Shown here in pieces: positions 2,927 through 20,878 of a stretch of 64,000 nucleotides of DNA (positions are counted from its first letter, which is position 1; the number at the start of each line of letters is the position of its first letter). A model generated the notes under the pieces. It ran no database searches, was not told where the DNA came from, and was given only the letters and a program-made list of their open reading frames with translations. The translations under genes and the position numbers were made by a program. The DNA is from Minisyncoccota bacterium (GTDB lineage Bacteria; Patescibacteriota; Minisyncoccia; Phycocordibacterales; UBA2100): NCBI GenBank assembly GCA_043780835.1, contig JAYWCB010000005.1:22280-86279 (forward strand), read 5' to 3'.

Positions 2927-3487
2927 CTATCGCAGATCCTGCGCAGAACATAGGGGGAAGATGCCGACTGCATCTTCTGCACGCATTTTTAGCGACGAGT
3001 CGAATGTTTTCGCAATGGGATACCCGCCGTGTCTCTTCACCCAGCGGGTGATTGCTGCAGAATGCGTCGGGTTGAAGTACCGGGCGGTCATCATTGTGCC
3101 GTCGTCGTGCAGTTTGGCGTTGCCAAACCGGTCCTTCGCAAAAATCGAACCCTTGTGGAATCCAAGTACGGCGATAGGAGTTAGGCATACTCGAATTCCG
3201 CGAAGCTGCGCCTGGTCAAGCACGTGCACGCACGCAGAGACACACACACCGTCAACCATGATGTGACGGATATGCCGTTGCTGCATTTGAGCAAGCGCAA
3301 ACTCGAAAAACGGCATACGCCCACCGGTGTTCCATTTGATGATGCATCGTGTGGGCGTGCATCCCGGGAACATCAGTGCCACAAAGTCTGTTTCTTCCTC
3401 CTGCGTACCTGTAGTTGACGCGTGCGCGGTATACGGCAGAGCGCACTGGGCAAGCAGTGCGGCAATTCTTAGCGCGTGCTTCAGCAT
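2927..3487 (-). CDS. Secreted small protein, paralog B of the ClpP-like family
   Basis: Signal peptide present. VDGVCVSACVHVL...IAVLGFHKG is homologous to the adjacent gene. Confidence 0.5.
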   Translation of the reverse strand: MLKHALRIAALLAQCALPYTAHASTTGTQEEETDFVALMFPGCTPTRCIIKWNTGGRMPFFEFALAQMQQRHIRHIMVDGVCVSACVHVLDQAQLRGIRVCLTPIAVLGFHKGSIFAKDRFGNAKLHDDGTMMTARYFNPTHSAAITRWVKRHGGYPIAKTFDSSLKMRAEDAVGIFPLCSAQDLR

Positions 3488-3606
3488 GGTCGCCTCCGCT
3501 ACAGGTGGTTGTACGATTCGGCTGCGCGTACTATACGTCGCATACCTAAACCGACAAGGATATTTCGAAGCGAGCAGTGTCGCAAGTGGGCAAGGAGGTG
3601 TTTTTT

Positions 3607-3615
3607 TGATATACT
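3607..3615 (+). promoter_or_regulatory. Extended -10 element TGaTATACT, 14 nt upstream of the gyrB ATG with no SD
   Basis: tttgatatact read directly in the sequence. Confidence 0.45.
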
Positions 3616-3629
3616 CAAACGACTAAAAT

Positions 3630-5672
3630 ATGGCTGAAACCAAGGGAAATAAGAGTGGTAAAACAGGCTCGTACGGAGCAGCGGACATTACGGTATTAGA
3701 GGGCTTGGAAGCGGTCCGGCGGCGACCGGGCATGTATATCGGCACCACCGGTCCCGATGGTCTCCATCATCTTATTACGGAAATCTTCGATAACTCACGC
3801 GACGAAGCGATGGGCGGTTTTGCTGATGACATCGAGATTGCACTGTTGCCCGATAACATGGTTCGCGTGGTCGACAACGGCCGTGGTATTCCGGTCGACA
3901 TCCATCCAAAAACAAAAGTTTCCGCGCTTGAAACCATTATGACCACACTGCACGCCGGCGGTAAATTCGGTGGTGAGGGATACAAAGTTTCGGGTGGACT
4001 CCACGGAGTGGGAGCGTCTGTTGTGAATGCACTTTCCACGTACGCGCGTGTAGAAGTGCATCGCGACGGCGGGCAGCATGTGCAGGAATACAAAAATGGC
4101 GGCAAGGCAGTTTCAAAAGTAAAACAAATCGGCAAATCAAAATTCCACGGCACGATCACTGTGTTCCAGGCAGACCCTTCAATCTTTCAAGTTATTGAGT
4201 ACAACTGGGATCGCATCGTGCAGCACATGCGTCAGCAGGCATATTTGGTAAAAGGCTTGCGCATTGCAATGTACGACCTACGAAATGCAGAAAAAGTACC
4301 ACACGAAGACGTGATTTATTTGCGCGAGCTCGGGCTCGATGCACCATCGTTCTCGTTCTATTTCGAAGGAGGTCTTCGATCACTGGTCGGATTCCAGAAT
4401 CATCACCAGGAGCCGGTTCACAAAACCATTTTCTATGTAGAAAAAGAATTGGATGGTGTGCAAGTAGAAGTTGCATTGCAATACGTTGACGATATGTCGA
4501 CACGCCTCACCGCATTTGCCAATAATATTTACACTGCCGAAGGCGGCACACACGTAACCGGATTTAAAACCGCGCTTACCCGGACACTGAATGTGAAGAA
4601 CGGGGGCGGGAAAGACTCTGACAGCTTTACGGGCGACGACGTGCTCGAAGGGCTCACGGCGGTGGTATCAGTAAAACTTCAGGAAATCCAGTTCGAAGGC
4701 CAGACCAAGGGAAAGCTCGGTTCGATGGAGGCTCGCGGTGCAACCGAAACGGTTTTTGGGGAAGCGTTCAATATGTTTCTCGAAGAGCATCCCGACGAAG
4801 CACGTGCAATCATAGGCAAAATCACGCTCGCCATGAAGGCGCGCAAAGCTGCGAAAGCCGCCAAGGATTCTATATTGCGTAAAGGTGCGCTCGACGGCAT
4901 GACATTGCCCGGCAAGCTCGCAGACTGCCAGAGCAAATCAGCCGAAGAATCAGAAATCTTTATTGTGGAAGGAGACTCGGCAGGGGGCACTGCGAAAATG
5001 GGTCGCGATCGTCGCATTCAGGCGGTACTTCCGTTGCGCGGAAAAATTCTCAACATCGAACGAGCGCGCCTCGATAAAATGCTCGCGTCAGAACAGATCA
5101 AGAATCTCGTCGTAGCGCTCGGCACCGCAATCGGCGACATCTTCGATCTTTCAAAATTGCGTTATCACAAGATCATTATTGCAACTGATGCCGACGTGGA
5201 CGGGGCACATATTCGTACGCTCTTGCTTACGCTTATGTATCGCCACTTCCGCCCGGTTATCGACGGCGGATTCCTTTATATTGCGCAACCGCCACTTTTC
5301 AAAATTAAAAAAGGAAAAGAAGTGCACTACGCATATTCAGACGCCGAGCGCATCAAATACGCTGGATCAGACACACCGCTGGAATCTGAGGCGGCAGAGC
5401 CGGAGGACGTTGAAGGGGAAGAAATTCCCGAGGAAGTGCAAAAAAAGCGAGCCACCAAAATTTCAGTGCAACGATACAAGGGCTTGGGAGAAATGAATTC
5501 AGATGAATTGTGGGAAACCACGATGGATCCCGCGCGACGCATTTTGAAGCAAGTAAACATTGAGGATGCAGTGGATGCAGATATGGTGTTCGACATGCTC
5601 ATGGGCACCGACGTGCCTGCACGCAAATCATTCATTCAGTCACATGCCAAAGAGGCAACGCTCGACATCTAG
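3630..5672 (+). CDS. gyrB: DNA gyrase subunit B
   Basis: GHKL ATPase N-terminus (LEGLEAVRRRPGMYIGTT), a TOPRIM domain, and the C-terminal EGDSAGG motif. Confidence 0.95.
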   Translation: MAETKGNKSGKTGSYGAADITVLEGLEAVRRRPGMYIGTTGPDGLHHLITEIFDNSRDEAMGGFADDIEIALLPDNMVRVVDNGRGIPVDIHPKTKVSALETIMTTLHAGGKFGGEGYKVSGGLHGVGASVVNALSTYARVEVHRDGGQHVQEYKNGGKAVSKVKQIGKSKFHGTITVFQADPSIFQVIEYNWDRIVQHMRQQAYLVKGLRIAMYDLRNAEKVPHEDVIYLRELGLDAPSFSFYFEGGLRSLVGFQNHHQEPVHKTIFYVEKELDGVQVEVALQYVDDMSTRLTAFANNIYTAEGGTHVTGFKTALTRTLNVKNGGGKDSDSFTGDDVLEGLTAVVSVKLQEIQFEGQTKGKLGSMEARGATETVFGEAFNMFLEEHPDEARAIIGKITLAMKARKAAKAAKDSILRKGALDGMTLPGKLADCQSKSAEESEIFIVEGDSAGGTAKMGRDRRIQAVLPLRGKILNIERARLDKMLASEQIKNLVVALGTAIGDIFDLSKLRYHKIIIATDADVDGAHIRTLLLTLMYRHFRPVIDGGFLYIAQPPLFKIKKGKEVHYAYSDAERIKYAGSDTPLESEAAEPEDVEGEEIPEEVQKKRATKISVQRYKGLGEMNSDELWETTMDPARRILKQVNIEDAVDADMVFDMLMGTDVPARKSFIQSHAKEATLDI

Positions 5673-6825: not shown

Positions 6826-7944
6826 TTAGTACTGGTACTGCGGGTAGTTTGGGTACTGCGTCTGGTACTGCTGTTGGTACGGGGGTTGATATTGCGGTTG
6901 ATACTGTGTCGCGCCGCTTACCCATACGGAGGCGTAATTATTTGACTGGCGACTGTCAGTTGCAAATAAATGTACCGTAAACATGCCATCAACGGCTGGG
7001 GTAAAGCGAAGTGTGTTGACCACGTGCGCACCACCGGCGAGTGACGGCTGTACCTGCGACGAGTATGTGTACGGTTGTGATGTCGGGATCTGCGCCTGGA
7101 ATGTGTATGAGCCGGACGGAGTAGATCCTATGTTGTGCACATCGAACTGCACCGCGGAGATTTCTGAAGGTGAATATGGCGCGCGCGCAACGAATGCACC
7201 GCTGTACGAGTCGATAACACCAACGGCAATGATTCGAACGGATAGATCAGCGGCAGACACCGGGCGTGGCGCTGGAACCGGTGACGGAATTGGGCGCGGA
7301 TAGCTAATCGGCTTTGGCGATGGGGTGATGTAAACCGGCTTTGGAGCAGGTGTCACGACCACCGGTGTTTCAACGACTGGTGTTGGTGGAGGTGTGATTA
7401 CAACCGGAGTGATAACAACCGGCGGAATCGTAATCGGTTCAGCCGAAACGACTCGAACGGTTGCGCTGCCTGTTGCTTCCGGGCCCGTGGTGCCTGCTGC
7501 GCTCGGAATGTAGAGAATTGAGATTGCTGTGTTTACCGAAGTAGTTCCCGTGAGCGTCGGGAGCATCGATGCAGTGCCGGTGGCATTGCCAACGGTGTAT
7601 GCAGCTCCGCACGGAATTGCATTTCCATCCACGGACATTTTCAAACCCTTTACGCATGTGTAGAGGATCGCATAGGTGCCGCGGTTTGGGCTCGAATGTT
7701 TCCACGAAACGTTGAACGGGGTATTTGCTGCGACTTCTGACGGTGCAGTTACGGTAATTTCTGTCTTTTTACTTCCGGAAAATGTATCCGAGAACCACGG
7801 AGTTGAAAGGGAAATGATATGGAGCAGACCCCAAATCACAATGATGATCAAAATGATGAATCCGACGATTGCGAGTATGTTTGCAACAATGCCCGGCTTG
7901 CGTGCCGGTCCCTGCGGTCGAATCTCTGGTGCTGCATCTGCCAT
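6826..7944 (-). CDS. N-terminally membrane-anchored surface protein with a Pro-rich linker and a Q/Y-rich C-terminal tail
   Basis: TM helix IVANILAIVGFIILIIIVIWGLLHII, PPVVITPVVITPPPTP repeats, and the tail QYQPQYQPPYQQQYQTQYPNYPQYQY. Confidence 0.55.
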   Translation of the reverse strand: MADAAPEIRPQGPARKPGIVANILAIVGFIILIIIVIWGLLHIISLSTPWFSDTFSGSKKTEITVTAPSEVAANTPFNVSWKHSSPNRGTYAILYTCVKGLKMSVDGNAIPCGAAYTVGNATGTASMLPTLTGTTSVNTAISILYIPSAAGTTGPEATGSATVRVVSAEPITIPPVVITPVVITPPPTPVVETPVVVTPAPKPVYITPSPKPISYPRPIPSPVPAPRPVSAADLSVRIIAVGVIDSYSGAFVARAPYSPSEISAVQFDVHNIGSTPSGSYTFQAQIPTSQPYTYSSQVQPSLAGGAHVVNTLRFTPAVDGMFTVHLFATDSRQSNNYASVWVSGATQYQPQYQPPYQQQYQTQYPNYPQYQY

Positions 7945-8740: not shown

Positions 8741-10069
8741 TTAATTCTGAAGCATGTTGTGCTTCGTCCAGTATTCGTATCGCCATTTGTACGACATGAT
8801 CGGGAACTTTTTTCCAACAAATGCGAACAAACTGTGTGTATCCATGAACATCGCGTATTTCACATAGGTGCTATCCGTTGAGAGCAGTCGCTCTTCTCCA
8901 AGAGCGCGACCCATATAGATAATGCACACAAGCAAAAACAGAATTCCGGATTGGACTGGGTTCACAATGCCCACGCCATTGAGCACAGGAAAATAGAGGA
9001 ACGCCCACTGGAAACACTTTGATACATAAATCGGATGCCGCGTGAACGCGAACGGTCCTGTGGTAATAATGCCACGCATCGAAATATTGGCTGCGCGTAT
9101 TCCCACGATGGCTTCGCCCCACAGGTGGATGATCGCCATAAATATGATCACGAACGCGACGCAAAAAAGTATCCCGGGATGTGCAATGGTGTGGTACGCC
9201 CAGGCTGGCGTGCCGTGGTAGACCGCTTCGGTTTCTGCCGCCGGCACATAGCGTACCCACCCGCCAAAGAGCGCGCTGTTAATCGGCGGGTAGCACGAGA
9301 GGTTAATCGCCCAGGCAAACCACGTGCGGTCTACCTTTTTTAATTCTGTTCCTATGAGACGTGAGGCAAAAATGTAACCGGGCAAAATTGATGCTACGAT
9401 CAACATAAAGATTGCCAGATCAAGTCGTGTAATAAACACGACAAAATCGCCGGAGATATCGGGAACACCGTTCACGCGCAAGAAATTGATGTACCACGTG
9501 AGCGCATAGAAGTTGATGAGCAGAAAGAAGCAGCGCAAAAGCCACTCGCGAACACCATCAAAGAAGATTTTCCAATCGATCTCCCCAATGTGGAGTCGCG
9601 CAAGGAGTCCGAACTGATAGGTGCCATCCTGTTTATTGCCGAGAATGTATTCGGTCGCAAAAATGAGTATAAGAGAGGCGGGTACGACGAACAATAATAC
9701 GGGTACGACCGCTTCTCGCAGACGATTTAAATTGATGGTGTCGTCGTATGAGGGGAAGAGCCACACGAGAAAGAAAATGAATGAAATACCGAGAAGCACT
9801 CCAATGAATTTCGTCACCGTCGTGTCGATGACATTGTTCAGAGAACGCGTGGGCCGATCAACGATCTTCCATGGAGCCCGTGCCAATTCTGAGCAAAAGA
9901 GGTAGCCGCTCGCGAGCAGTGCCATGACGAGGGTTATCGTCACGTCGGAGGCCGATGTGCGATAGAGAGTCAGAAAAACAGCGACAATGATCGCGACCGA
10001 TACGAGGGGATCGAACCAACTGCCCACGGAGAGTCGGTAGATGTCTGCTTTTGTTACTGATGTGCTCAT
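8741..10069 (-). CDS. Polytopic membrane protein with a C-terminal ICMT/PEMT-family methyltransferase-like domain
   Basis: More than 8 TM helices. The ITTGPFAFTRHPIY and EERLL...Y motifs are typical of isoprenylcysteine carboxyl / phospholipid methyltransferases. Confidence 0.6.
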   Translation of the reverse strand: MSTSVTKADIYRLSVGSWFDPLVSVAIIVAVFLTLYRTSASDVTITLVMALLASGYLFCSELARAPWKIVDRPTRSLNNVIDTTVTKFIGVLLGISFIFFLVWLFPSYDDTINLNRLREAVVPVLLFVVPASLILIFATEYILGNKQDGTYQFGLLARLHIGEIDWKIFFDGVREWLLRCFFLLINFYALTWYINFLRVNGVPDISGDFVVFITRLDLAIFMLIVASILPGYIFASRLIGTELKKVDRTWFAWAINLSCYPPINSALFGGWVRYVPAAETEAVYHGTPAWAYHTIAHPGILFCVAFVIIFMAIIHLWGEAIVGIRAANISMRGIITTGPFAFTRHPIYVSKCFQWAFLYFPVLNGVGIVNPVQSGILFLLVCIIYMGRALGEERLLSTDSTYVKYAMFMDTHSLFAFVGKKFPIMSYKWRYEYWTKHNMLQN

Positions 10070-10233: not shown

Positions 10234-12948
10234 TTGATTTTTAATCGTATTGGCGCTATGTCAGCATTCAGTTTCCACAAGAAAGGTTTTGCATTTTCAT
10301 CCTTGCAAACACTCGGCACTGCATTCGTTGCTCTTATTCTTTTTGGGTTCGCGATGATGCTTGTTTTACGCGCGGATCATAGTTTTGCATTACGTATTGG
10401 AGGCACCGGCGGAGCAGCGGGGCTTTTCTTGGCACATGCTGATGGTGGTGATGGCGGTGGAGGCGGCGACTCAGGCGGCGGCGGTGACTCCGGTGGTGGC
10501 GGCGGCGCTGGTGATGGAGGTGGCGGTGGCGGCGGCGGCGCTGGTGGAGGCGACTCAGGCGGCGGCGGTGACTCAGGCGGCGGCGGCGCAGGCGGTGGCG
10601 ATTCTGGCGGCGGCGGTGACTCCGGCGGAGGCGGCGGAAGTTCCGGTGACGGTGGTGGCAGCTCCGGCGATGGAGGAGGAGGCGGAGGAGGCGGTGGCGA
10701 TGGAGGAGGCGGTGGCTGCACATCAAACTGCACACCACCACCTGTCGCAGTTTCCTGTGCGATCACCGCTAATCCGACGCAGGTGCAATCGGGCGGTTCA
10801 ACCACACTCACGTGGACATCCAGCGGCGCAACATCTGCTGCGCTCTCCGGAATTGGCAGCGTGACGGTAAGCGGGTCACGCACGGTCGCGAACATTACTT
10901 CGAATCGTACGTTCGTACTTACGGTCGCAGGTCCGGGCGGTACAGCAACCTGCCAAACGGCGGTCACTGTTACGGTACCCCCACCTTCGTGCACACTCTC
11001 TGCAAATCCCACAACAATTGAAAACACCGGATTCTCCACGCTCTCGTGGTCATCATCAAACGGTGCGTCCGCTACACTCACCACGATCGGTTCAGTTCCG
11101 CTCACAGGTTCCGCAATAGTTACTCCTGCGGTTACAACCACATATACACTCACGGTCCTCGGGCAAAACGGACAAACAGTCACGTGCCAAACCATTGTTA
11201 CGGTGCGACCAGTACCGAATGCGCCGAGCTGCACACTCTCTGCAAATCCATCGTCCATTCAAAGCGGAGGCTCAACGGTCTTGAATTGGAGTTCTAGTAA
11301 TGCAGTTTCTGCATCGTTCAATCAAGGCATCGGATCGGTTGGAGTATCGGGGAGCCGTACAGAAAGTGCTATCACTTCAAATCGCACCTATGTGCTCACC
11401 GTCACCGGTTCAAACAGACAAACTGCTACATGCGAGGCGCCGGTAACCGTGACCACACCGAGCGCACCGAGCTGCACCATCTATGCAAATCCGACTGATG
11501 TGCAGAGCGGTGGCTCTTCTACACTCACCTGGACTTCAACCAATGGAACTTCAGCAACCATCAATCAGGGAATCGGATCAGTCTCACTGAACGGCTCATA
11601 TACAGTTTCAAACATCACGCAGAATAAAACATTCGTACTCACCGTCACCGGATCAAACGGTCAAACAGTGAATTGCGAAACACGTGTGGTTGTAACCCAA
11701 ATTCCAAATCCACCGGCATGCACGCTCACCGCGAATCCGACGCAGGTGCAATCGGGCGGTTCCACGAGTCTGGTCTGGACTTCCACCAACGCATCGAGCG
11801 CATCGTTCGATAACGGCATCGGCAGCGTGGGTGTAAATGGTTCGTATTCAGTCTCGAACATAACGTCAAATCGAACCTACACACTCACCGTCATGGGTTC
11901 CAACGGTCAGACTGCAACGTGTCAGACATCCATCGTCGTGACACAGATTCCAAGCGCACCGAGCTGCACGCTCAGTGCAAATCCGAACAACGTAAATTAC
12001 GGTGGCTCATCCACGCTCACCTGGTCGTCGAACAATGCGATTTCCGCGATGCTCGATAACGGAATCGGATCGGTCGGAGTAAACGGTTCGTACGTTGTTT
12101 CGAATGTCACATCAAATCGCACCTACTCGTTGACGGTCACCGGCTCGAACGGACAAACGGCAACATGTCAGGCGCCGATTGTGGTGCAACAGCAGAATGT
12201 AACGCCGAGCTGCACGATTTCTGCATCGCCGTATTCGATTACACAAGGTCAGTCAGTAACGCTCTACTGGTCTTCTACAAACGCATCGTCTGCATTCATT
12301 AATCCGAATGTCGGTACGGTGGGAACGGCAGGATCAATGCAGGTATTCCCGCAAGGCAACAGCACGTACACGCTCACGGTAATGGGAACCAACGGTCAGA
12401 CCGTGACGTGCCAAACATCGGTGGTCGTGCAAAACATTGTGAACCAAGTTCCGTACTGCACCATCTATGCAAACCCGACATCCGTGCAGCGTGGCCAGAG
12501 TGCGATGATCACGTGGACCTCGCAGAATGCACAAAGTGCACAACTCTCGAGTGTCGGATCAGTGGGAGTAAACGGATCGATGAATGTGACGCCGTATCAG
12601 CCAACCACGTATACGCTCACGGTGTGGAGCGCAACCGGTCAACAGGCAACATGCAGCGCATCCATCCAAATGAATCAGCCGCCGTACTTCCCGCCACCGA
12701 CGTATTACCCACCACAACCGCCCATCTACTACCCACCACAACCACCAACGATCTATCCTCCGATTCAGTATTACCCTCCGAACATTCCGATTTCGTACAT
12801 CCCGTACACGGGACAGGGAAGTCCGATCGGTAACATCGTGCTCTTCGGTCTCATCGTTGCGGCATCACTCAGCGGCGCCTATCTCTTGCTCTACTCACGC
12901 GGCGGAGCTCGCGAAATGCTCGCGCAAGCTGGACTGCTTCGCGCCTAA
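10234..12948 (+). CDS. Large cell-surface protein: signal peptide, Gly/Asp/Ser-rich region, eight tandem Cys-bracketed beta-sandwich-like domains, Pro/Tyr-rich stalk, and an IPYTG-TM-SRGGA C-terminal sorting signal
   Basis: Repeats of the form CTLSANP..QSGGST.L.W.S.NA.SA...GIGSV...GS..V..ITSNRTY.LTV.G.NGQTATC. The C-terminus reads IPYTGQGSPIGNIVLFGLIVAASLSGAYLLLYSRGGA. The listed start is TTG; the ATG at 10258 is an alternative. Confidence 0.8.
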   Translation: MIFNRIGAMSAFSFHKKGFAFSSLQTLGTAFVALILFGFAMMLVLRADHSFALRIGGTGGAAGLFLAHADGGDGGGGGDSGGGGDSGGGGGAGDGGGGGGGGAGGGDSGGGGDSGGGGAGGGDSGGGGDSGGGGGSSGDGGGSSGDGGGGGGGGGDGGGGGCTSNCTPPPVAVSCAITANPTQVQSGGSTTLTWTSSGATSAALSGIGSVTVSGSRTVANITSNRTFVLTVAGPGGTATCQTAVTVTVPPPSCTLSANPTTIENTGFSTLSWSSSNGASATLTTIGSVPLTGSAIVTPAVTTTYTLTVLGQNGQTVTCQTIVTVRPVPNAPSCTLSANPSSIQSGGSTVLNWSSSNAVSASFNQGIGSVGVSGSRTESAITSNRTYVLTVTGSNRQTATCEAPVTVTTPSAPSCTIYANPTDVQSGGSSTLTWTSTNGTSATINQGIGSVSLNGSYTVSNITQNKTFVLTVTGSNGQTVNCETRVVVTQIPNPPACTLTANPTQVQSGGSTSLVWTSTNASSASFDNGIGSVGVNGSYSVSNITSNRTYTLTVMGSNGQTATCQTSIVVTQIPSAPSCTLSANPNNVNYGGSSTLTWSSNNAISAMLDNGIGSVGVNGSYVVSNVTSNRTYSLTVTGSNGQTATCQAPIVVQQQNVTPSCTISASPYSITQGQSVTLYWSSTNASSAFINPNVGTVGTAGSMQVFPQGNSTYTLTVMGTNGQTVTCQTSVVVQNIVNQVPYCTIYANPTSVQRGQSAMITWTSQNAQSAQLSSVGSVGVNGSMNVTPYQPTTYTLTVWSATGQQATCSASIQMNQPPYFPPPTYYPPQPPIYYPPQPPTIYPPIQYYPPNIPISYIPYTGQGSPIGNIVLFGLIVAASLSGAYLLLYSRGGAREMLAQAGLLRA
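10438..10716 (+). repeat. Tandem degenerate GGNGGNGAYTCN-type DNA repeats encoding a roughly 93-aa Gly/Asp/Ser tract
   Basis: Repeated ggcggcggtgactcaggcggcggc units. The antisense ORF is poly-Pro. Confidence 0.7.
10756..12678 (+). repeat. Eight tandem coding repeats of about 240 nt (80-aa domains)
   Basis: Period of about 240 nt. Units 1 and 5 share an identical 29-nt stretch, aatccgacgcaggtgcaatcgggcggttc, at 10771 and 11744. Confidence 0.7.
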
Positions 12949-12968
12949 GTACCACACTCGTTCAGAGC

Positions 12969-12994
12969 CTGTGCAAGGTGTCACCTTGCACAGA
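12969..12994. repeat. 26-nt perfect palindrome ctgtgcaaggtg-t-caccttgcacag-a, copy 1 (intergenic, 21 nt after the surface-protein stop)
   Basis: Read directly. An identical copy lies at 63284-63309. Confidence 0.85.
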
Positions 12995-13019
12995 CATAAT
13001 CAGGGTCTCTCGAATGGAC

Positions 13020-13048
13020 TTGACAAATGTGTCGTAATGGTCTATAAT
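13020..13048 (+). promoter_or_regulatory. Consensus promoter TTGACA-17-TATAAT for the sortase gene; the ATG is 6 nt downstream (leaderless)
   Basis: ttgacaaatgtgtcgtaatggtctataat, then accgct, then ATG at 13055. Confidence 0.65.
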
Positions 13049-13054
13049 ACCGCT

Positions 13055-13762
13055 ATGAATACGGGTTCCAATCGAGATAATCGCCCACACAAACCACCGT
13101 TTGCCGTTTACTTTTCGGCGACGATTATTTTGTTTGTGCTTTCACTTTCTGTGGCTGATTCTCTCGGTCTCGTACCGGATTACATCGATGGTACGGAATC
13201 TGAGCATGTTGCAGTGCAGACAACAGCGAGCGACAATCTTCCAGTTTCAGATTTGCCTGAGCTTGGTCAAACACAATCGGCGGCTATCGATGAGACACCA
13301 GCTGCATCGCCAGCATCAAAAAACGCAAAACCGATCTCCATCATCATTCCGTCAATCGGCATGAATCTTCCCGTTCAAAACCCGAACACCCGCGATCTCG
13401 GTGTGCTCGATACGTTGTTGCAACACGGCCCAGCACGCTACGTAGATTCGGCTCACCTTGGTGAGCGCGGCAATGTGATTATTTTTGCGCACTCTTCGCA
13501 TCTGCCGGTCGTGCACAATCAAATGTACAAAGCATTCAACCGTGTGCCGGAACTTACGCAGGGCGACACTATTACTGTCGTTGGTGACGACGGACAGAAA
13601 TATCTGTATAGCGTAACCTCTGTTCGCAAAGCGGATGTGTCGGACGCAACCATCGATCTCTCACCGCGTGTCGGCACAAAGCTTACGCTCGTGACGTGCG
13701 ACACGCTTACGGGTAAAACCGCGCGCTTTATTCTTGAAGCCGACTTTATCGGAACTATCTAA
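13055..13762 (+). CDS. Sortase (transpeptidase), membrane-anchored
   Basis: N-terminal TM helix. IFAHS (His), TLVTC (catalytic Cys) and TARF (Arg) align with SrtA AGH / TLITC / R. The start was trimmed to the leaderless ATG. Confidence 0.85.
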   Translation: MNTGSNRDNRPHKPPFAVYFSATIILFVLSLSVADSLGLVPDYIDGTESEHVAVQTTASDNLPVSDLPELGQTQSAAIDETPAASPASKNAKPISIIIPSIGMNLPVQNPNTRDLGVLDTLLQHGPARYVDSAHLGERGNVIIFAHSSHLPVVHNQMYKAFNRVPELTQGDTITVVGDDGQKYLYSVTSVRKADVSDATIDLSPRVGTKLTLVTCDTLTGKTARFILEADFIGTI

Positions 13763-13767: not shown

Positions 13768-14412
13768 ATGAAAAATTTCCTTACACCATTTATTGTTTCG
13801 TTTATGCTCGCATTTCCGCAGATCACGCTCGCGATGTCATACGCGATGCCTGCGTATCAGCCGATATATTTCGAAGCGATCTCGCTCACCGGATGTCCGT
13901 ATCCGACGAGTGTGTCTGCTTTTACCGGTGAAAGCGCATTTACCGGGACCTCTGACGTAACGGGTGTGCCGTACACAACGGGCGTATCGTACGATACCGG
14001 AGATTCATATCGCGTCGGCGTCTCAGCTCGTACATCAGAAAGCTATCGCGTGGGCACGTCGTATTCGACAGGCTCATCGTATGCAACCGGTGCGTCTTCC
14101 GGACGTGTCGGATCATCGTATGCAACGGGCGAGAGTTATTCGACGGGGTATTCGCAACCGTCGAGCTATTCGGTACCGACAAGTTACTCAACAGCAACCA
14201 GTCATCCGAAACGATCTTCGTACAATCATACTCAGTATGCTGACTACAATGCACCGCACTTTTACAATGAATCGCCTACAACGGTGACTGACACCACAGG
14301 GTATTACTACGAAACCTATTATCCAGAAACCGCGCAATACGCATCGAATTCGAACTATGCGCCGACAACTCGATACGACGACGTGATGGGCGTGTACTAC
14401 CAGAGTTACTAA
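13768..14412 (+). CDS. Secreted Ser/Tyr/Thr-rich low-complexity protein
   Basis: Signal peptide MKNFLTPFIVSFMLAFPQITLA, then T/S-G-x-SY repeats. It starts 5 nt after the sortase stop. Confidence 0.55.
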   Translation: MKNFLTPFIVSFMLAFPQITLAMSYAMPAYQPIYFEAISLTGCPYPTSVSAFTGESAFTGTSDVTGVPYTTGVSYDTGDSYRVGVSARTSESYRVGTSYSTGSSYATGASSGRVGSSYATGESYSTGYSQPSSYSVPTSYSTATSHPKRSSYNHTQYADYNAPHFYNESPTTVTDTTGYYYETYYPETAQYASNSNYAPTTRYDDVMGVYYQSY

Positions 14413-14435
14413 TCTGATTCAGCTATAGACAAAAA

Positions 14436-14458
14436 GACCGCGATGCGCGGTTTTTTTG
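14436..14458 (+). terminator. Intrinsic terminator accgcg-atg-cgcggt plus T7
   Basis: Hairpin followed by tttttttg. Confidence 0.65.
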
Positions 14459-14493
14459 TTAGTAGCTTCATGATTTCCGCAGTAGGGAATCAT

Positions 14494-14522
14494 TTGACAA
14501 ATCCGTCAAATGTGCTACATTA
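14494..14522 (+). promoter_or_regulatory. Promoter-like TTGACA-17-(T)ACATTA
   Basis: Exact -35 with a weak -10. Confidence 0.35.
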
Positions 14523-14581
14523 ATTTTGGAGCATATCGCACCAGCCTCAAAGAGGTTCACCCAACGAAAAAGGACCAGCAG

Positions 14582-15544
14582 ATGTCCATTCAAGCATTCT
14601 CAAATCTTCTGACTCATCAGCCCCGCGTAACGAACGATGGTGACATTGTCTACTCAGGATTCAAGGCAGAGGACATGTTCCAAGAATACGGTCACAAGCT
14701 GCGCGATTGGCGCGATCGTGACCGGAAAACCAAGGAGCTCATCGGACCGCGGCGTCTCGTCACTGTCCTCGGAACCGAAGACGCCAACACGATCGCGAAG
14801 GGTTTCGAAGCGGTCGAGATAAAAGAGGGCGATGGAGAGTTGAAGATCAAAACTGCGGTGGAAGACAAGTCACGGTGGGCAACCTTCGGTGCGTATGCTG
14901 TTGACGGCGAAGGCAAACCCCTCCTGACGCCTGTGATGAAAGACGAACTATTCTTTTACGCGAAGATCATCACCGGGTTGGTACATACTCCGGTGCGGCA
15001 CGTCGATCCGCGCAGCGGCAAGACGTACACCAAATTGTGGACCGAGGATGATCTGACGGGTCTCATGCGTCGTCGCATGAACGTGTCGGAGCATGGGTTC
15101 CACACACTCGGCGGCGCCGATACGATCCGCAACAACGTCGGCGAGAGCGATCTCTCCGATCAGACGCAGGTGCTGTGGTCGAAGGCTTCGCGGAGCAAGA
15201 TCTTCGATACGAAGATCCCGCAGAGCCGTTGGCAGCTTGTGCGCATCTACCGCCATGGCGGCGAAGGTGCGGTGCAGGACACTGGTGTTCTGGTTCGCTA
15301 CAAAGGCCTCGGCGATACGCTGCAGATTATCGACGCGTCGAACGATCCGGTGGTTCGTGAGGCGTGGCGAATCGCCGAACAGGCTCGCATCGATCAGCAT
15401 CGTGCAAATATCAAGGCACGGGCACTTGCTCGAAAGCTGGCGAAGCAGAAAGGCGAAACGGTCGCAGAGGTCGTGGAAGCGGATGTCGACGAGGTGGTTC
15501 CTACCACCGAGGAGGTGTCCCTCGAAGAGACTGCTGCGGCGTAA
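14582..15544 (+). CDS. Hypothetical protein (320 aa), no signal peptide
   Basis: ORF with an AAGGA SD; no recognisable domain. Confidence 0.5.
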   Translation: MSIQAFSNLLTHQPRVTNDGDIVYSGFKAEDMFQEYGHKLRDWRDRDRKTKELIGPRRLVTVLGTEDANTIAKGFEAVEIKEGDGELKIKTAVEDKSRWATFGAYAVDGEGKPLLTPVMKDELFFYAKIITGLVHTPVRHVDPRSGKTYTKLWTEDDLTGLMRRRMNVSEHGFHTLGGADTIRNNVGESDLSDQTQVLWSKASRSKIFDTKIPQSRWQLVRIYRHGGEGAVQDTGVLVRYKGLGDTLQIIDASNDPVVREAWRIAEQARIDQHRANIKARALARKLAKQKGETVAEVVEADVDEVVPTTEEVSLEETAAA

Positions 15545-15565
15545 ATATAATCGATCGCGTTCTTT

Positions 15566-15603
15566 GAACCCCAGGGTGGCAACACCCCGGGGTTCTTTTT
15601 TTT
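15566..15603 (+). terminator. Intrinsic terminator aaccccagggtg-gcaa-caccccggggtt plus T9
   Basis: Read directly. Confidence 0.65.
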
Positions 15604-15639
15604 CAAGAGCACGCGATGCACGATGGTACAATTTTCATA

Positions 15640-17490
15640 ATGATGGCGAGAAATCCGGAAACCGTACGACGGCAAAAAGAAAAGCCGACACCGATTGCAG
15701 ACGATGTTCGCGCTCGATGGAAAGACACGTGGCTTCGCGAGGGTGAATACATATTGGTGGATGAGCAGATGAACGAACTTGCTCGCGTTCCGTTCAACGA
15801 AACGAATTTGCGTCACTACAATTTAGGGCCTGAGAAAAATATTATCGTCGCCGAACAGAAGATTTTAGAACAAACAAACGAGCAGCGACGGGCGTTAGGA
15901 CTACGTGAGTTCCGAACGTTTGCCCAAATTGGACGTGGTGACACCGTTCGTTCCGTCACACCCACTGAATTGGAACCGGACACAACACTGCCACTGGATC
16001 CCGGCACGCTGTCCGAACCAGATGCGCCGTCGGTTCGCACGCGCCGCGCGCGCGGCATCAATCCCGCATCGCCGAATACATCGGCACAGAATCAGCCGAA
16101 TACGCCGTCGCAAACGCCACCCGCCTCACCGAACGCTGTGCCGAATACACCGCCTCAATCTCCGTCTGCCACACCAAACACTCCACGTCAGACGCCGCCG
16201 CAATCTCCACCGAACGCTCAGAATTCTCCGCCGCCCGTTCCCAACGCTCCGCTGGCAACTCCGACAATCCCGCCTGTTGTCCCCATAGCGCGGCGCGGCG
16301 GCGGCGGATTTACGTCGGGCTCTGGCACAATGAAGCCGATGGGTCTTGAATCTTTCTACAAACGTCGCGATAAAAGCGCCGAGATCGATCGTCAAAAGAC
16401 GATCGTCAATCCGGTAAGCGGCGAAGGTATGGACGCCCCGCCGGAGACGACCGTCGGCGAAATAATGGGGGACGCTGATCAGCAAAAACTGTTCGTAAAT
16501 ACGTTCCTTGCACGCGAGAACGAAAAATTTGCGAAAGAGTTTGCGAAGAAAAACGCAGACGGCAAGTTGCTCACTGCTGCCGAAGACAAGGAGCTCGAGC
16601 GTCTGCGAAAGAAATTCATCAAGGAAATGAGCGAGGTGCAGAGCGTGAAGGAGTACCTCACGCCCGAACACTTCAAGCGCATCGCAGAAGTTGACCCGCG
16701 CATCGCCGAGGTGGTGGGGAAGATAGGTCATGAAAAAGCCGAGGATCTCATGGAAGCGGAGCTCACGGAGCTTATGGTCACTGACCCGGCAAAGTTTCGA
16801 AAAATGCGCAATGCACTGAAGTCGTTCCACGACCTTGATCATTCGCCTCGCGTTGCCCGAGTCGAAGCGGACATCCGCAAATCGCAGGCTAAGATCGGCA
16901 TGTCAGAAGACGAGTTCCTTGCAGCGACGAAGCTCGGATCGCCGACTGCAGTCGAGAAACGCTTCCACGAACTTGCACACGAGCGCCTGCCGCTTCTTGG
17001 ACGCGCGCTCAACTTTGGCGGTTGGATCAACAAGCGCTCAGTACAGGAGCTCTCCAGGCACTACGCCTCGCAAGAGGCGATCATGCAGGATGCCGACAAG
17101 CATATGAAAGCGGTCGGATCTGTCCTGCAGGCAACACTCAATCCTGAGATGAGATTACGTATCCAGAAACTTGCGATGGAGGGTATTCTCGAAGAAAAAG
17201 TACCGGATACGATAAACACCATCGAGGACTATCGCGCGGTCAAACACGAGAATAGTCCCATGGCAATGCAGACCGCATTTGATGAGATAAAAGCCGCTGA
17301 AGCAGCTAAAAACCAGATCACCAACTGGGCCGACCCAACGAACGCCGCACGTCTGGATTCACTCAAAGACTCTTTTGCGAAATCGGCGTATGAGAAACAA
17401 AAGAAGCAGAAAACGTCGGGCCTCTATGCCATCCTGTTAAGGGTGCTATTCGGAAAGTCATCCGACGATATCAAGAATAAGCTCAAGTAG
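15640..17490 (+). CDS. Hypothetical large protein with a Pro/Thr/Ser/Asn-rich low-complexity segment and a helical C-terminal half
   Basis: NTPSQTPPASPNAVPNTPPQSP... then a K/E-rich helical region. No signal peptide. The start at the MMARN methionines follows a CATAAT box. Confidence 0.5.
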   Translation: MMARNPETVRRQKEKPTPIADDVRARWKDTWLREGEYILVDEQMNELARVPFNETNLRHYNLGPEKNIIVAEQKILEQTNEQRRALGLREFRTFAQIGRGDTVRSVTPTELEPDTTLPLDPGTLSEPDAPSVRTRRARGINPASPNTSAQNQPNTPSQTPPASPNAVPNTPPQSPSATPNTPRQTPPQSPPNAQNSPPPVPNAPLATPTIPPVVPIARRGGGGFTSGSGTMKPMGLESFYKRRDKSAEIDRQKTIVNPVSGEGMDAPPETTVGEIMGDADQQKLFVNTFLARENEKFAKEFAKKNADGKLLTAAEDKELERLRKKFIKEMSEVQSVKEYLTPEHFKRIAEVDPRIAEVVGKIGHEKAEDLMEAELTELMVTDPAKFRKMRNALKSFHDLDHSPRVARVEADIRKSQAKIGMSEDEFLAATKLGSPTAVEKRFHELAHERLPLLGRALNFGGWINKRSVQELSRHYASQEAIMQDADKHMKAVGSVLQATLNPEMRLRIQKLAMEGILEEKVPDTINTIEDYRAVKHENSPMAMQTAFDEIKAAEAAKNQITNWADPTNAARLDSLKDSFAKSAYEKQKKQKTSGLYAILLRVLFGKSSDDIKNKLK

Positions 17491-17491
17491 T

Positions 17492-17743
17492 ATGACCAAC
17501 ACAGAACTTTTGGAACAGATGGAATCGGCACTGGAGAGCGGCGGAGAAGCTGCGCTCGAGCGTTACCTCATCGATAATTTCGAAAATCTACCCAAAGACA
17601 TACAGGGTAAGGTACTGGTTTCTTTCATGCGGGAAACGGTGGAGGGCGATGATGCGATACTTGAGATACAGGAGAAGGGGATTGCCGCCATCCAAGCAAT
17701 TGAAGCGCTTAAAGCAGAGATCACAAACGAGGGCTCTAAGTAA
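17492..17743 (+). CDS. Small acidic hypothetical protein (83 aa)
   Basis: Starts 2 nt after the upstream stop; likely co-translated. Confidence 0.4.
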   Translation: MTNTELLEQMESALESGGEAALERYLIDNFENLPKDIQGKVLVSFMRETVEGDDAILEIQEKGIAAIQAIEALKAEITNEGSK

Positions 17744-17765
17744 GGGTTTAAAAGCGGATCGACAC

Positions 17766-17794
17766 TTGACAAGTTGTATTTATTGGTCTACAAT
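17766..17794 (+). promoter_or_regulatory. Consensus promoter TTGACA-17-TACAAT
   Basis: Read directly. The downstream leader carries an AAGGAG SD. Confidence 0.6.
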
Positions 17795-17860
17795 ACACCC
17801 AGTGTCCCGAATCGTAATGACCGGGATTCAATATCACAATCAAACAGCAAGGAGCTCTCG

Positions 17861-18313
17861 ATGAAAACGTTCAACATGGCCTTGGTTGGTGCGAGTGCAC
17901 TTTTGCTCGGCGCGTTCGTTCAAGTGAACGATGCGGCGGCGCAGTATCGCGGCAATCCGAACGGCGGAGTCGCAACGGGGGGAAGCATGGCAATTCAAAA
18001 TGGCGTTCCTCACGCATCCCAGCATTACGACAACAGCTGTCGTCGACTCGGTGGTCCATGGTGCCTTACGGGTCCTGGAAATCATGGCGGCGGCTACGGT
18101 AAGCAGTACGGAGGCGTTTATAGTCAACAATACGGCCATGGTCATAGAGTGCAACATGGACAGCGGATGGTGCTGATGAGTCGCGAAGTGCGGCACATCC
18201 GAATCGTTCGCACTCATCAGGAGAGAGGGTCGATGCAAGGGGGAACGAATTCATCGGGCAATATGTCCGGCGTCTCGCGCCCTTCGCTTCCCAGCGGTTG
18301 GTCATGGATGTAA
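17861..18313 (+). CDS. Secreted Gly-rich protein
   Basis: Signal peptide MKTFNMALVGASALLLGAFVQVNDAAA. SD aaggag lies 7 nt upstream. Confidence 0.55.
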   Translation: MKTFNMALVGASALLLGAFVQVNDAAAQYRGNPNGGVATGGSMAIQNGVPHASQHYDNSCRRLGGPWCLTGPGNHGGGYGKQYGGVYSQQYGHGHRVQHGQRMVLMSREVRHIRIVRTHQERGSMQGGTNSSGNMSGVSRPSLPSGWSWM

Positions 18314-18316
18314 TAC

Positions 18317-18532
18317 ATGGTACATGACGAAAAAAAACCCGGGAAAGCCGGTGATGGAGGTGAAAAGGTGTTGAAGGCAGTTGCCATCACGGTCGTGGTC
18401 ATCCTCGCTATAATCGGTCTCATATCGCTGGGAAACAACGACGTGCGTATACGAGACGGCGGAGTCAGAGTCGGTGGTAACCCCGCGTACGATCACCTGC
18501 CGCGCCTCCCACGCGGATGGCATTACGATTGA
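18317..18532 (+). CDS. Small single-TM membrane protein
   Basis: TM helix VLKAVAITVVVILAIIGLISLG. Confidence 0.35.
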   Translation: MVHDEKKPGKAGDGGEKVLKAVAITVVVILAIIGLISLGNNDVRIRDGGVRVGGNPAYDHLPRLPRGWHYD

Positions 18533-18553
18533 GTTCTTTCAAAAAAACAAAAA

Positions 18554-18578
18554 GGCGCCTCTGAACGGCGCCTTTTTC
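18554..18578 (+). terminator. Intrinsic terminator ggcgcc-tctgaac-ggcgcc plus T5
   Basis: Read directly. Confidence 0.65.
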
Positions 18579-18582
18579 TTTA

Positions 18583-18613
18583 TTGACAGATCGTAACAGA
18601 TATGATGTTATAT
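18583..18613 (+). promoter_or_regulatory. Promoter TTGACA with a -10 region TATGATGTTATAT
   Basis: Exact -35. The -10 is ambiguous, with a 17-19 nt spacer. Confidence 0.4.
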
Positions 18614-18659
18614 CGCCAGCTCAATAATGGGTAAATCCGGCGAAAGATAGGAGACCATC

Positions 18660-19367
18660 TTGTCAAAACTCTATTCCTTACTCTACGCTGCAGTAATTGG
18701 GATCGTCGCGTTTCTCTTGATCGCGCTTTTTCTCCCGTATCAGGCGGAGTGGGGTCGCCGCGTATCGGCAAACTTCATTACGGGGCTGATGCCGGGGGTG
18801 ACGGATCCGTTCATTTCCTCATGGGCGCTTGCGGCTCTGGTGTTCACGCTCGTGTTCGCCGTCGCCGCACTCGTGCTGTTGATCGTGATCCGTCGGACAC
18901 ACGGGAATTCATTGCTCGCGATCTGCGCGTCGATGCTCAACGTGGGCCCGAGCATCTGGTTCGGTATTCACATGCATCGCGTGTTTATCGGTCCGCTCGA
19001 ATACGGCCCGATCAAATTGGCTGCGATCGCTCCGTCTGCGATCAACGTCTCATACTTTGTATGGACGATCGTATTGCCCGGAGTGGGGTACCTCGCACTC
19101 TGTATGCTAGCGCTTGTGATGCGTCCGCGAACATCGACTGTTCTGTTCATGTTCTCGGCCGTTGCGTCGATGGTTCCGATCGCTGAGATCGGATACGTCT
19201 GGCTTTCGTGGGCAGGGAGTTCGTCGTGGCAGCCGAATCTACTCCGGGACAACGCGATGATCGTGTGGTTCTGGGTGGAGTTCGTGGATGTGCTGATCCT
19301 TGCGACAGCTTACATGCTCGCTACGAGATCAGCAGTCGTCGAGCCGGGAGTGGCAGGCACCCACTAA
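18660..19367 (+). CDS. Polytopic membrane protein (TTG start)
   Basis: Six hydrophobic segments. AGGAG lies 8 nt upstream of the TTG. Confidence 0.5.
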   Translation: MSKLYSLLYAAVIGIVAFLLIALFLPYQAEWGRRVSANFITGLMPGVTDPFISSWALAALVFTLVFAVAALVLLIVIRRTHGNSLLAICASMLNVGPSIWFGIHMHRVFIGPLEYGPIKLAAIAPSAINVSYFVWTIVLPGVGYLALCMLALVMRPRTSTVLFMFSAVASMVPIAEIGYVWLSWAGSSSWQPNLLRDNAMIVWFWVEFVDVLILATAYMLATRSAVVEPGVAGTH

Positions 19368-19386
19368 CGCTCTTCAGGAAATACAA

Positions 19387-19415
19387 GGCGGGCCCGTCAG
19401 GCCCGCCTTGACTTT
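19387..19415 (+). terminator. Hairpin ggcgggcc-cgtca-ggcccgcc followed by a T-rich tract
   Basis: Read directly. Confidence 0.5.
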
Positions 19416-19472
19416 TTATGTATTTTATGTATGGTTTGTGCAGGAAAAAACACCACGGGAAGGGTTTCCATC

Positions 19473-19973
19473 ATGGTACATATCGATCCGGCTCACGACG
19501 CTCACGGAGATACCGGTCACAAACAGACCTTCATCCTCGCAGTCGCGGGAATGTGGTCAATCATGTTTTCGCTGATCATTTATCTCTCGATCACGGGGTG
19601 GTTCATACCGAACATCCGCTCCGATATTCCCACCGCGATTATTTCTTCGGTGCGGATCATTGGCGCGATCTCGTTTTTCGCGATCGTGCATGTAGGAATC
19701 CAGCTCGCGCTCATAACAAACCGTCCGAATAGGGAAGCACCGCTGTGGCAGAAGGCATTCGACTATCTCACATCGTTCGCCCCCTTACTATTGGGTGTGA
19801 TCCTCGGACATATCATGGCGGCGCGGCAGTATGACCGCGCATACGCGTCATGGTGGATCGAGCTTCGCTTCTGGATCGACGTGATCGTGTGCACTGCGAT
19901 TGCAGTCGACGTGATCCCAACAGTTAAATTGATCATTTTTGGTCGATCAAGCGCGGCAGACGATGATCACTGA
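19473..19973 (+). CDS. Polytopic membrane protein
   Basis: Hydrophobic helices. The start is at MVHIDP, after a gggaaggg SD-like element. Confidence 0.45.
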   Translation: MVHIDPAHDAHGDTGHKQTFILAVAGMWSIMFSLIIYLSITGWFIPNIRSDIPTAIISSVRIIGAISFFAIVHVGIQLALITNRPNREAPLWQKAFDYLTSFAPLLLGVILGHIMAARQYDRAYASWWIELRFWIDVIVCTAIAVDVIPTVKLIIFGRSSAADDDH

Positions 19974-19993
19974 TCATTCAATGGCACACTGAA

Positions 19994-20024
19994 CGCCGGC
20001 AACCACTAATGTTGCCGGCGTTTT
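19994..20024 (+). terminator. Intrinsic terminator cgccggcaac-cactaat-gttgccggcg plus T4
   Basis: Read directly. Confidence 0.65.
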
Positions 20025-20030
20025 AATATA

Positions 20031-20058
20031 TTGACAAAAACGGATTCACGTGTATAAT
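20031..20058 (+). promoter_or_regulatory. Consensus promoter TTGACA-16-TATAAT
   Basis: Read directly. Confidence 0.6.
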
Positions 20059-20106
20059 ACTTGACAGTCTGAGGCATACCGCCTTCAGTTTATAAGGGAG
20101 ATACCG

Positions 20107-20841
20107 ATGCACAGGATCACGACAATACTCGCTACGGTTGCAATCATCGGCTCAGCATCGCTCGCGGCATTTGCCCAAAGCGACATCCTCGAGCCCGTAA
20201 CGCCGCCGACTGCGAAGACCGAAACCCCGCCTGTCGTAACAGCGGCTCCGGCAGAAAAGACGAAGGCTCCGCCGGTCATAACTGCAGCGCCAAAGTCTGA
20301 AGCGTTGCCGGCCGCTACCACGGAACCGACACTTGCTCCACCGGCGCCAAAGCCCTCGATCGCGGCAACGGCACCGCTTCCTCCGCCTGCGCCGCTGACG
20401 CTAGATGTTTCGCTGGAAACGCAGGTGAATAACCTGCAGACGAAACTCGCCAACATCGAGAAATCGACCAAGGAGGAGCTCGCGCGGACGAATGAACAAC
20501 TGGGCAAGACCAGTGACGCTGTCACGAAATCGACCAGTGTGATGGTCGAGCTCGCGAAGACGATTGATGGTCTCAACAAGAAGATCGACGGAGTCGATGC
20601 GAAGATTGCTAGCATTCCTGCGAGCGCGCCGGCAACGGACGTTTCCAAGGATCTGAAGGCACTCTCCGATCGCGTGCTTTCGATTGAAACGAAGCTCAGC
20701 GATCCGGCTGTACCTGTTGCGCCGCCGGCAGCAACGCCGACGTCGGAACGGGAGTCGTCCACAAAGACCGCGGAAACGACCGACTTCGGCCCGAAACACG
20801 AGCCGTTCTCGCTTCCGAAGGGTTGGTCGGCTCTGAACTGA
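20107..20841 (+). CDS. Secreted Pro/Ala-rich coiled-coil protein
   Basis: Signal peptide, a PPVITAAP region, and heptad-like LQTKLANIEKSTKEEL. SD gggag. Confidence 0.6.
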   Translation: MHRITTILATVAIIGSASLAAFAQSDILEPVTPPTAKTETPPVVTAAPAEKTKAPPVITAAPKSEALPAATTEPTLAPPAPKPSIAATAPLPPPAPLTLDVSLETQVNNLQTKLANIEKSTKEELARTNEQLGKTSDAVTKSTSVMVELAKTIDGLNKKIDGVDAKIASIPASAPATDVSKDLKALSDRVLSIETKLSDPAVPVAPPAATPTSERESSTKTAETTDFGPKHEPFSLPKGWSALN

Positions 20842-20878
20842 CCCAACCGATTAGATATCGGAAGGGAATGCACTTTAA

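Follow-up and report, generated by a model that had tools for sequence, protein, structure and literature searches.

A lineage-specific sortase of Candidatus Kaiserbacteria/Paceibacterota and its probable IPYTG-type sorting signal

Which signal a sortase of the Candidate Phyla Radiation (CPR) reads is the question raised by a locus within a 64,000-nucleotide (nt) stretch of contig JAYWCB010000005.1 from a Minisyncoccota bacterium, hereafter the window, in which a sortase gene lies immediately 3' of the gene for a repeat-rich surface protein of 904 codons. More than half of CPR genomes encode sortases (PMC6744442), and one report refers to "sortase motifs" on surface proteins of CPR bacteria (PMC5220378); our literature search with "IPYTG" yielded only unrelated papers, and no description of a sorting motif for a CPR sortase was found. 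The first-pass annotation, made from the DNA letters, had proposed that this enzyme reads a non-canonical signal, IPYTG followed by a hydrophobic helix and [KR]GGA, shared by the 904-residue protein and by a second protein of 493 residues encoded further downstream. The analysis presented herein led us to favor, with a probability of about 0.62, a lineage-specific sortase system of Candidatus Kaiserbacteria/Paceibacterota, in which the enzyme would cleave IPYTG-bearing substrates for their anchoring to the cell wall.

The sortase gene and the elements required for its description were located as follows.

13055-13762, forward strand: sortase gene, 235 residues from the ATG at 13055 (the alternative ATG at 13037 would give 241 residues)
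13020-13048, forward strand: sigma-70-type promoter TTGACA-17-TATAAT, 12 of 12 matches, ending 6 nt before the ATG at 13055
13490-13492, 13697-13699 and 13724-13726, forward strand: codons of the catalytic His, Cys and Arg, respectively

The open reading frame (ORF) had been listed as 12857-13762 (301 codons). Judging from the position of the promoter, which lies ~70 nt 3' of the 904-codon gene, and from the sortase homologues, which begin at an equivalent MNxG, the extension to 12857 does not appear to be real, and the true start is almost certainly the ATG at 13055. Since the promoter ends 6 nt before this ATG, the sortase is probably transcribed separately from the upstream substrate gene, possibly as a leaderless mRNA.

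The product is a bona fide sortase, as had been proposed. The Pfam model Sortase (PF04203) matched residues 162-296 of the 301-codon ORF with 65.5 bits (cut-off 26.6 bits, E=5e-18), and the best 120 of the 882 relatives found at E<=1e-3 all carried PF04203; the few relatives with a name, among them one from Candidatus Paceibacterota, bore none more specific than "sortase". The putative catalytic residues H152 (FAHSS), C221 (TLVTC) and R230 were invariant in 28 homologues with 53-82% identity, as were much of the membrane helix and the juxtamembrane segment ADSxGxVPDYIDG. The whole triad had been described as aligning with that of SrtA; in the HMMER alignment with Bacillus anthracis SrtA, the Cys of TLxTC and the downstream Arg did align, but the His was mismatched (FAHSS against "LAGHN" of the chain). 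A PDB search with the sortase-family profile returned B. anthracis SrtA as the best match (2kw8, 1.2e-8), with enzymes of classes C, E and D ranking next. The AlphaFold2 model consisted of an N-terminal membrane helix (residues 22-43), a disordered linker of ~50 residues and a catalytic β-barrel, with the mean predicted local distance difference test (pLDDT) score of 10-residue blocks in the catalytic domain ranging from 60 to 94. Foldseek gave a probability of 1.0 for more than 100 sortase structures, with target TM-scores of up to 0.80 against SrtA (3rcc). Because SrtA, SrtC and SrtD matched about equally, at ~15-26% identity, the structure does not tell the classes apart, and a class assignment on this ground was rejected. 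Among the NCBIfam models, of which none for class A or B was listed, no cut-off was reached, with 37.9 against 160 bits for class E, 33.9 against 166 for class F, 27.9 against 158 for class GN, 24.7 against 160 for class C, 22.1 against 140 for class D and 27.1 against 39.35 for sortase_fam (TIGR01076). As no class A-F model reached its cut-off, the earlier designation of the enzyme as a member of a distinct clade is fair, and the enzyme is an unclassified sortase of Candidatus Kaiserbacteria/Paceibacterota.

The gene immediately upstream encodes what we refer to as the class 1 substrate.

10234-12948, forward strand: surface-protein gene of 904 codons, listed with a TTG start (from the ORF and its translation)
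10462-10636, forward strand: Gly/Asp/Ser low-complexity spacer, imperfect tandem repeats of 15-48 nt (Tandem Repeats Finder)
10756-12693, forward strand: eight tandem immunoglobulin (Ig)-like repeats, CT[LI]xANP...TC, of 78-82 residues with one Cys pair in each
12799-12813, forward strand: IPYTG, residues 856-860, containing the proposed T/G cleavage site
12826-12945, forward strand: hydrophobic helix IGNIVLFGLIVAASLSGAYLLLY, then the 17-residue basic tail SRGGAREMLAQAGLLRA

The likelier start of this gene is the ATG at 10258. Its product comprises, in order, an N-terminal signal or anchor, a (GGGD/GGDS)n spacer, the eight Ig-like repeats, a Pro/Tyr-rich stalk, the IPYTG module and a short tail; the secretion signal MSAFSFHKKGFAFSSLQTLGTAFVALILFGFAMMLVL was read by eye, not by a predictor, and the Pfam matches to BiPBP_C and a PKD-like model were weak. 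The C-terminus, ...ISYIPYTGQGSPIGN-IVLFGLIVAASLSGAYLLLY-SRGGAREMLAQAGLLRA and stop, presents IPYTG, the helix, and YSRGGA followed by 12 residues. Counted from the I of IPYTG, 49 residues remain before the stop, so that the signal stands at the extreme C-terminus, and this tail is kept in the close relatives L001-L005 and L042.

The class 2 substrate, the protein of 493 residues, is encoded downstream of the sortase.

22087-23568, forward strand: gene of the 493-residue core protein (from the ORF and its translation)
23179-23352, forward strand: 58-residue sorting module PSVSLTQ-IPYTG-LALSPFAQ-AMYWLSLMSVAAAGGYLLVYY-KGGALAFAGAALSR (from the family logo)
23209-23223, forward strand: IPYTG, residues 375-379, then the helix at ~23239-23310 and YYKGGA
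23506-23562, forward strand: C-terminal cytoplasmic motif TxD[SA]M...G.P[RKQ]I[IV]IxR (from alignments; a predicted β-hairpin)

This protein consists of a signal peptide (MNSFKTFSVNSSLAVTVALLIACASFGISSTVANA|AD, likewise read by eye and not by a predictor), Gly/Tyr-rich repeats, three CxxC motifs, one Ig-like domain, the IPYTG module and a cytoplasmic tail; around the signal it reads ...PSVSLTQIPYTGLALSPFAQAMYWLSLMSVAAAGGYLLVYYKGGALAFAG..., followed by ~85 more residues. Pfam and NCBIfam gave no match for it, and a Foldseek search with the model of its C-terminal part returned only generic Ig-like matches (best E=3e-3) and no pilin or adhesin family. Its N-terminal units YYGGQEF(A/S)xN are encoded by tandem repeats of 33-36 nt at 22236-22424. 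The CxxC motifs (CTTC, CITC and CTTC; residues 184-220, 22636-22748) lie in a Pro-rich stretch upstream of the Ig-like domain and could form a metal or disulfide site.

The shared pattern of IPYTG, helix and Y(S/Y)(R/K)GGA was thus seen in both proteins as originally described. The reported absence of LPXTG, LAXTG and NPQTN from both was also confirmed; none of these motifs stood before a helix in any real ORF of the window, in which the two proteins carried the only xPxTG-plus-helix signals. That a basic residue follows the helix is nothing unusual, as cell-wall sorting signals ordinarily have one as their third part.

To what extent this pattern exceeds chance was assessed in the window and in relatives. 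The sortase-seeded sample comprised 80 related loci (1.19 Mb in total; scan with one genome per species), the titles of which all named Kaiserbacteria, Paceibacterota, Parcubacteria or similar CPR lineages; together with 80 module-seeded loci from metagenomes, all loci collected amounted to 2.08 Mb. The composition of both proteins is biased toward G, S, T and Y, a kind of sequence in which short motifs can recur, so that the two IPYTG occurrences might be regarded as chance matches in low-complexity surface proteins or as an annotation artefact. However, the window holds two of them against 0.023 expected over six frames. In the sortase-seeded loci, [IL]PYTG was found 64 times on the sortase strand and never on the other, against 1.3 expected, and was always followed by a helix. 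When the 58-residue module was run as a profile against 1.84 billion cluster representatives, 736 matches were obtained at E<=1e-3 and 303 at E<=1e-10. In a census of the 2.08 Mb, the recurrent motif-helix-basic signals were IPYTG (127) and a single LPYTG, everything else remaining at noise level (<=3 each). The strand-specific counts, the profile search and this census refute a chance origin, the probability of which we regard as practically negligible, and no canonical LPXTG, LAXTG or NPQTN signal was recurrent in this lineage.

The logo of 64 distinct sequences read P(-7)YVSL[ST]Q-IPYTG-FD[FL]GxxGNAxYW-helix-YLxVYY-[KR]GGA, in which a linker of 5-8 residues leads from the motif to an uncharged helix of ~22 residues and then to R/K. 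Among the top 156 sequences the pentapeptide was IPYTG in 154 and MPYTG in one. The rare variants at position 1 were MPYTG in P0135 and, at L013:9947, LPYTG followed by a short RLRLVG tail of the classical kind; position 1 therefore tolerates L or M, with P, Y, T and G fixed. The signal was accordingly distinct in that IPYTG is fixed in the clade; the Ile at position 1, in contrast, is a variant already known, IPXTG being an accepted sortase motif that occurs in four proteins of Streptococcus agalactiae (PMC8225981). The [KR]GGA ending, which had been called conserved, proved to be the consensus of a sub-clade, whereas its frequencies in the family were 0.25 for R, 0.22 for K, 0.72 and 0.64 for the two G and 0.44 for A, other members having YY[VIL]P... 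instead. No NCBIfam or Pfam model covers the module, and the database names of the proteins bearing it say nothing beyond "hypothetical". Word-indexed homologue searches were set aside as too insensitive, having returned 11 proteins for the 493-residue C-terminus and 4 for the 58-residue module, all unnamed. The module was also considered as a stand-alone unit on the basis of the mini-proteins P0132-P0135 (57-90 residues), and this was rejected; they are probably split or truncated gene calls, because P0132 occupies the normal syntenic place ahead of ThrRS and DnaE and directly follows a truncated ORF.

The association of enzyme and signal was examined from both sides. IPYTG occurred in 31 of the 35 sortase-seeded loci with at least 9.5 kb of downstream sequence, and in the reciprocal test, of the 21 module-seeded loci that extended at least 9 kb upstream, 20 had the sortase. 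Class 2 homologues were found in 49/80 sortase-seeded and 80/80 module-seeded loci. The backbone of the region ran PheT-GyrB-(6826-7944, divergent)-sortase-[variable genes]-class 2-ThrRS(-)-DnaE(-). Since this is a housekeeping backbone, the synteny may reflect inherited gene order rather than functional coupling; as proof of coupling it was therefore downgraded, and the weight was moved to the reciprocal test, to the upstream adjacency in divergent lineages and to the absence of other signals. Orthologues of the 904-residue protein with the same architecture (GGGD spacer, Ig-like repeats and Pro-rich stalk) were encoded 230-280 nt upstream of sortases with only 46-52% identity (L098, L132 and L149), the (GGGD)n spacer being found in those of L098, L132 and L003. 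Of all the genomic evidence, this upstream adjacency, which recurs throughout the clade, speaks most strongly for a functional link. The gene in L098 (L098:~2900-4770, forward strand) combines a run of CPPGQ(I/T)GTYPNC repeats with one Ig-like domain and the IPYTG module, and two of its repeats look, by eye and without a model test, like the Cna-B/SpaA-type domains typical of sortase substrates; given this mix of domains, the passengers of the IPYTG signal appear to be modular. A classical three-part C-terminus with a short tail was seen in 33 of 165 IPYTG occurrences, on several different passenger proteins, the 904-residue protein and its orthologues being among these class 1 cases.

Among the known systems, class A SrtA of Staphylococcus, Streptococcus and Bacillus is the closest in design. 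Both share the type II membrane anchor, disordered linker, β-barrel, His-Cys-Arg triad and TLxTC, the best sequence and structure matches being those to 2kw8 and 3rcc given above, and in both one enzyme per locus serves few substrates bearing a three-part signal of xPxTG, helix and basic residue. In contrast to SrtA, to which its identity is only ~20-26%, the Kaiserbacteria sortase falls below sortase_fam and every class cut-off, its motif is fixed as IPYTG in a conserved 58-residue context, its substrate tails are longer (17 and ~85 residues), and its own helix and ADSxGxVPDYIDG segment are invariant. Class E and F sortases fill the housekeeping role in organisms without SrtA. These actinobacterial enzymes, which act on LAXTG or LPXTG, provided the highest-scoring curated class models, but the scores were about a quarter of the cut-offs, and the Kaiserbacteria motif has Pro, not Ala, at position 2. 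The Arg is retained here, whereas Asn has been reported in actinobacterial class F (PMC8703055).

A closer look is warranted at class C, since the enzyme could alternatively be a pilin polymerase that joins IPYTG-bearing Ig-repeat subunits head to tail via a lysine into a pilus or fibre. IPXTG is typical of the pilins of S. agalactiae and S. pneumoniae. The occurrence of the motif is documented (PMC8225981); as in those systems, the substrate and sortase genes are adjacent and the substrates are built of Ig-like domains, and class C structures were among the top structural matches. The enzyme, however, lacks on inspection of its sequence both the DP[FWY] lid motif and a C-terminal membrane anchor, ending 11 residues after the catalytic Arg, and its score with the class C model is that given above, far under the threshold. 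Each locus contains a single sortase gene, and neither a pilin motif nor a conserved Lys was found on reading the Ig-domain alignments, the 904-residue protein having by our reading 3 Lys in all and only 1 outside the signal peptide. We thus consider polymerization very unlikely.

A more serious difficulty is posed by the 493-residue protein. Its copy of the signal had been presented as C-terminal like that of the 904-residue protein, and this did not hold: the protein is bitopic and continues beyond the helix for ~85 residues, the tail terminating in a conserved, predicted β-hairpin. From the I of IPYTG to the stop it has 119 residues, the family median being 114, and class 2 is the dominant form, with 124 of 156 relatives having a tail of ~70-90 residues that ends in a PRIVIxR-type motif (P[RK]IVIxR). 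The AlphaFold2 model of a 215-residue C-terminal query showed an Ig sandwich, an extended and disordered IPYTG stretch between this domain and the helix, a long helix (residues 106-146) through YYKGGALAFAGAAL, a disordered acidic linker and a β-hairpin (strands 196-202 and 208-214; block mean pLDDT 64-81 over 191-215).

These features would also be understandable if, at least in the 493-residue family, the module were an uncleaved juxtamembrane and transmembrane domain, retained in a bitopic protein that links the Ig domain to the cytoplasmic β-hairpin, with the sortase a mere neighbor or acting elsewhere. Several observations weigh in this direction and against sorting by cleavage. Conservation extends beyond the usually disposable signal over the entire module, including FDFGxxGN after the would-be scissile bond and residues inside the helix, and the X position, which is normally free, is always occupied by Tyr in IPYTG. 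The conserved tail of most family members suggests a cytoplasmic function, which is easiest to understand in an uncleaved protein. The sortase and the 493-residue gene are both embedded in the conserved housekeeping backbone, and neither substrate matches the LPXTG anchor models PF00746/TIGR01167, P, T and G being kept with I in place of L. Moreover, the structure of the CPR cell envelope is unresolved (PMC5220378).

On the other hand, several passenger proteins carry this module in the classical arrangement with a short basic tail (the 33 cases above), and in divergent lineages the next gene upstream of the sortase is of this short-tail type. The three positions on which sortases depend, P, T and G, do not vary, and the 2.08 Mb offered no alternative sorting signal for the enzyme. 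Strong conservation of the full-length signal is, furthermore, also known for the targets of PEP-CTERM, PGF-CTERM and GN-sortase systems. The class GN "marine" pair and, by analogy, exosortase/PEP-CTERM and archaeosortase/PGF-CTERM likewise combine one enzyme with one or few cognate targets in clustered genes, the whole C-terminal signal region being conserved enough for detection by a profile. In contrast, the GN model scored only 27.9 of the 158 bits, motif and taxon differ, and we know of no such system with a long conserved cytoplasmic extension after the helix. On balance, we judge a retained anchor to be unlikely. Nevertheless, the invariant Tyr at X, the conserved leaving-side FDFGxxGN, the conserved helices in both enzyme and substrate and the conserved tail are unusual, and because of them both a retained anchor, at least for class 2, and a functional leftover peptide are kept as options.

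In the sortase system that we favor, the enzyme would act as a membrane-anchored cysteine transpeptidase, and the substrates would be Sec-exported proteins built of Ig-like domains, one of them the fibrillar, adhesin-like eight-Ig-repeat protein encoded immediately upstream of the enzyme. The precursor would be held in the membrane by its helix and basic tail, and the sortase would cut between T and G of IPYTG to form a thioacyl intermediate. The ectodomain would then be passed to an amine nucleophile, most plausibly a peptidoglycan precursor, yielding a covalently wall-linked surface protein. In the case of the 493-residue protein, cleavage would leave behind the helix and a cytoplasmic peptide of ~85 residues ending in the conserved β-hairpin. 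The family, triad and fold of the enzyme, the motif with its conservation and topology elements, the genomic association and the lack of other sorting motifs described above are observations; the cleavage, the nucleophile and any role of the tail are what we infer from them.

A more far-reaching variant would combine a new sortase class with a two-sided substrate, whose Ig ectodomain becomes attached to the wall on cleavage at IPYTG and whose membrane-embedded remainder, released or unmasked thereby, has a job of its own, carried out by the PRIVIxR β-hairpin; in view of the invariant helix and juxtamembrane segment of the enzyme, recognition would be extended and partly intramembrane. We regard this variant as doubtful. 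If it applied, the β-hairpin could serve, for instance, in the spatial targeting of anchoring (e.g., to the division site), in reporting on surface assembly by analogy with the streptococcal "C-pep" circuit, or as a degron.

The surroundings of the locus were also inspected. Between the stop of the 904-codon gene and the sortase promoter lies a perfect 21-nt palindrome, GTGCAAGGTG-T-CACCTTGCAC (12971-12991), which has no T-run and may represent either a hairpin resembling a terminator or a site bound by a protein. On the other side of the surface-protein gene, a reverse-strand gene at 8741-10069 encodes a polytopic membrane protein with a weak match to an ICMT-like methyltransferase (E=0.0011, below the cut-off); this gene occurs in the closest relatives alone, next to the 904-residue substrate gene. 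The gene at 6826-7944 (reverse strand), the divergent neighbor of the sortase in 69/80 related loci at about -320 nt, encodes a 372-residue type II membrane protein that contains Ig-like regions and a Pro-rich linker and whose C-terminus is rich in Gln and Tyr; neither a Pfam match nor IPYTG was found in it.

Ten ORFs occupy 13768-21956 between the sortase and the 493-residue gene, beginning with a secreted, Ser/Thr/Tyr-rich protein of 214 residues that starts 6 nt after the sortase stop. Searches of these ORFs with PHROGs and Pfam gave no informative match and hence nothing that would point to a prophage or to accessory genes of the sortase system; as the ORFs are without matches and mostly absent from related loci, the region looks like a lineage-specific variable island. 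The PaaX-like protein encoded at 23824-24498 (forward strand), just downstream of the 493-residue gene, has a central domain resembling Cas2 (PF20803, E=7e-20); in 13 related loci its gene lies upstream of the sortase instead. Far from the locus, 62205-62957 (reverse strand) encodes a PrsW-family intramembrane metalloprotease (PF13367, E=9e-28), which might conceivably serve to remove the signal peptides left over after cleavage. The other genes of the window are housekeeping ones by Pfam (PheT, GyrB, ThrRS, DnaE, SMC, TrmD, primase and sigma-70), and the ORF pair at 40292-47260 we take to be RpoB/RpoC, going by size and position only.

CPR bacteria, or Patescibacteria, are considered a major part of bacterial diversity. 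They live attached to other cells, and little of their envelope and surface biology is known. The locus appears to represent a previously undescribed IPYTG variant of the LPXTG system, in which the pairing of enzyme and signal comes with a conserved tail in the main substrate. It yields an unclassified sortase clade paired with an invariant IPYTG module, a profile with which substrates can be searched for, and two types of substrate. Since the Tyr at X and the Ile at position 1 are fixed, the enzyme could, if its specificity holds, serve as an orthogonal ligation tool. The conserved tail, unusual for a sortase substrate, could in turn reveal a coupling between surface anchoring and the cytoplasm in these organisms.

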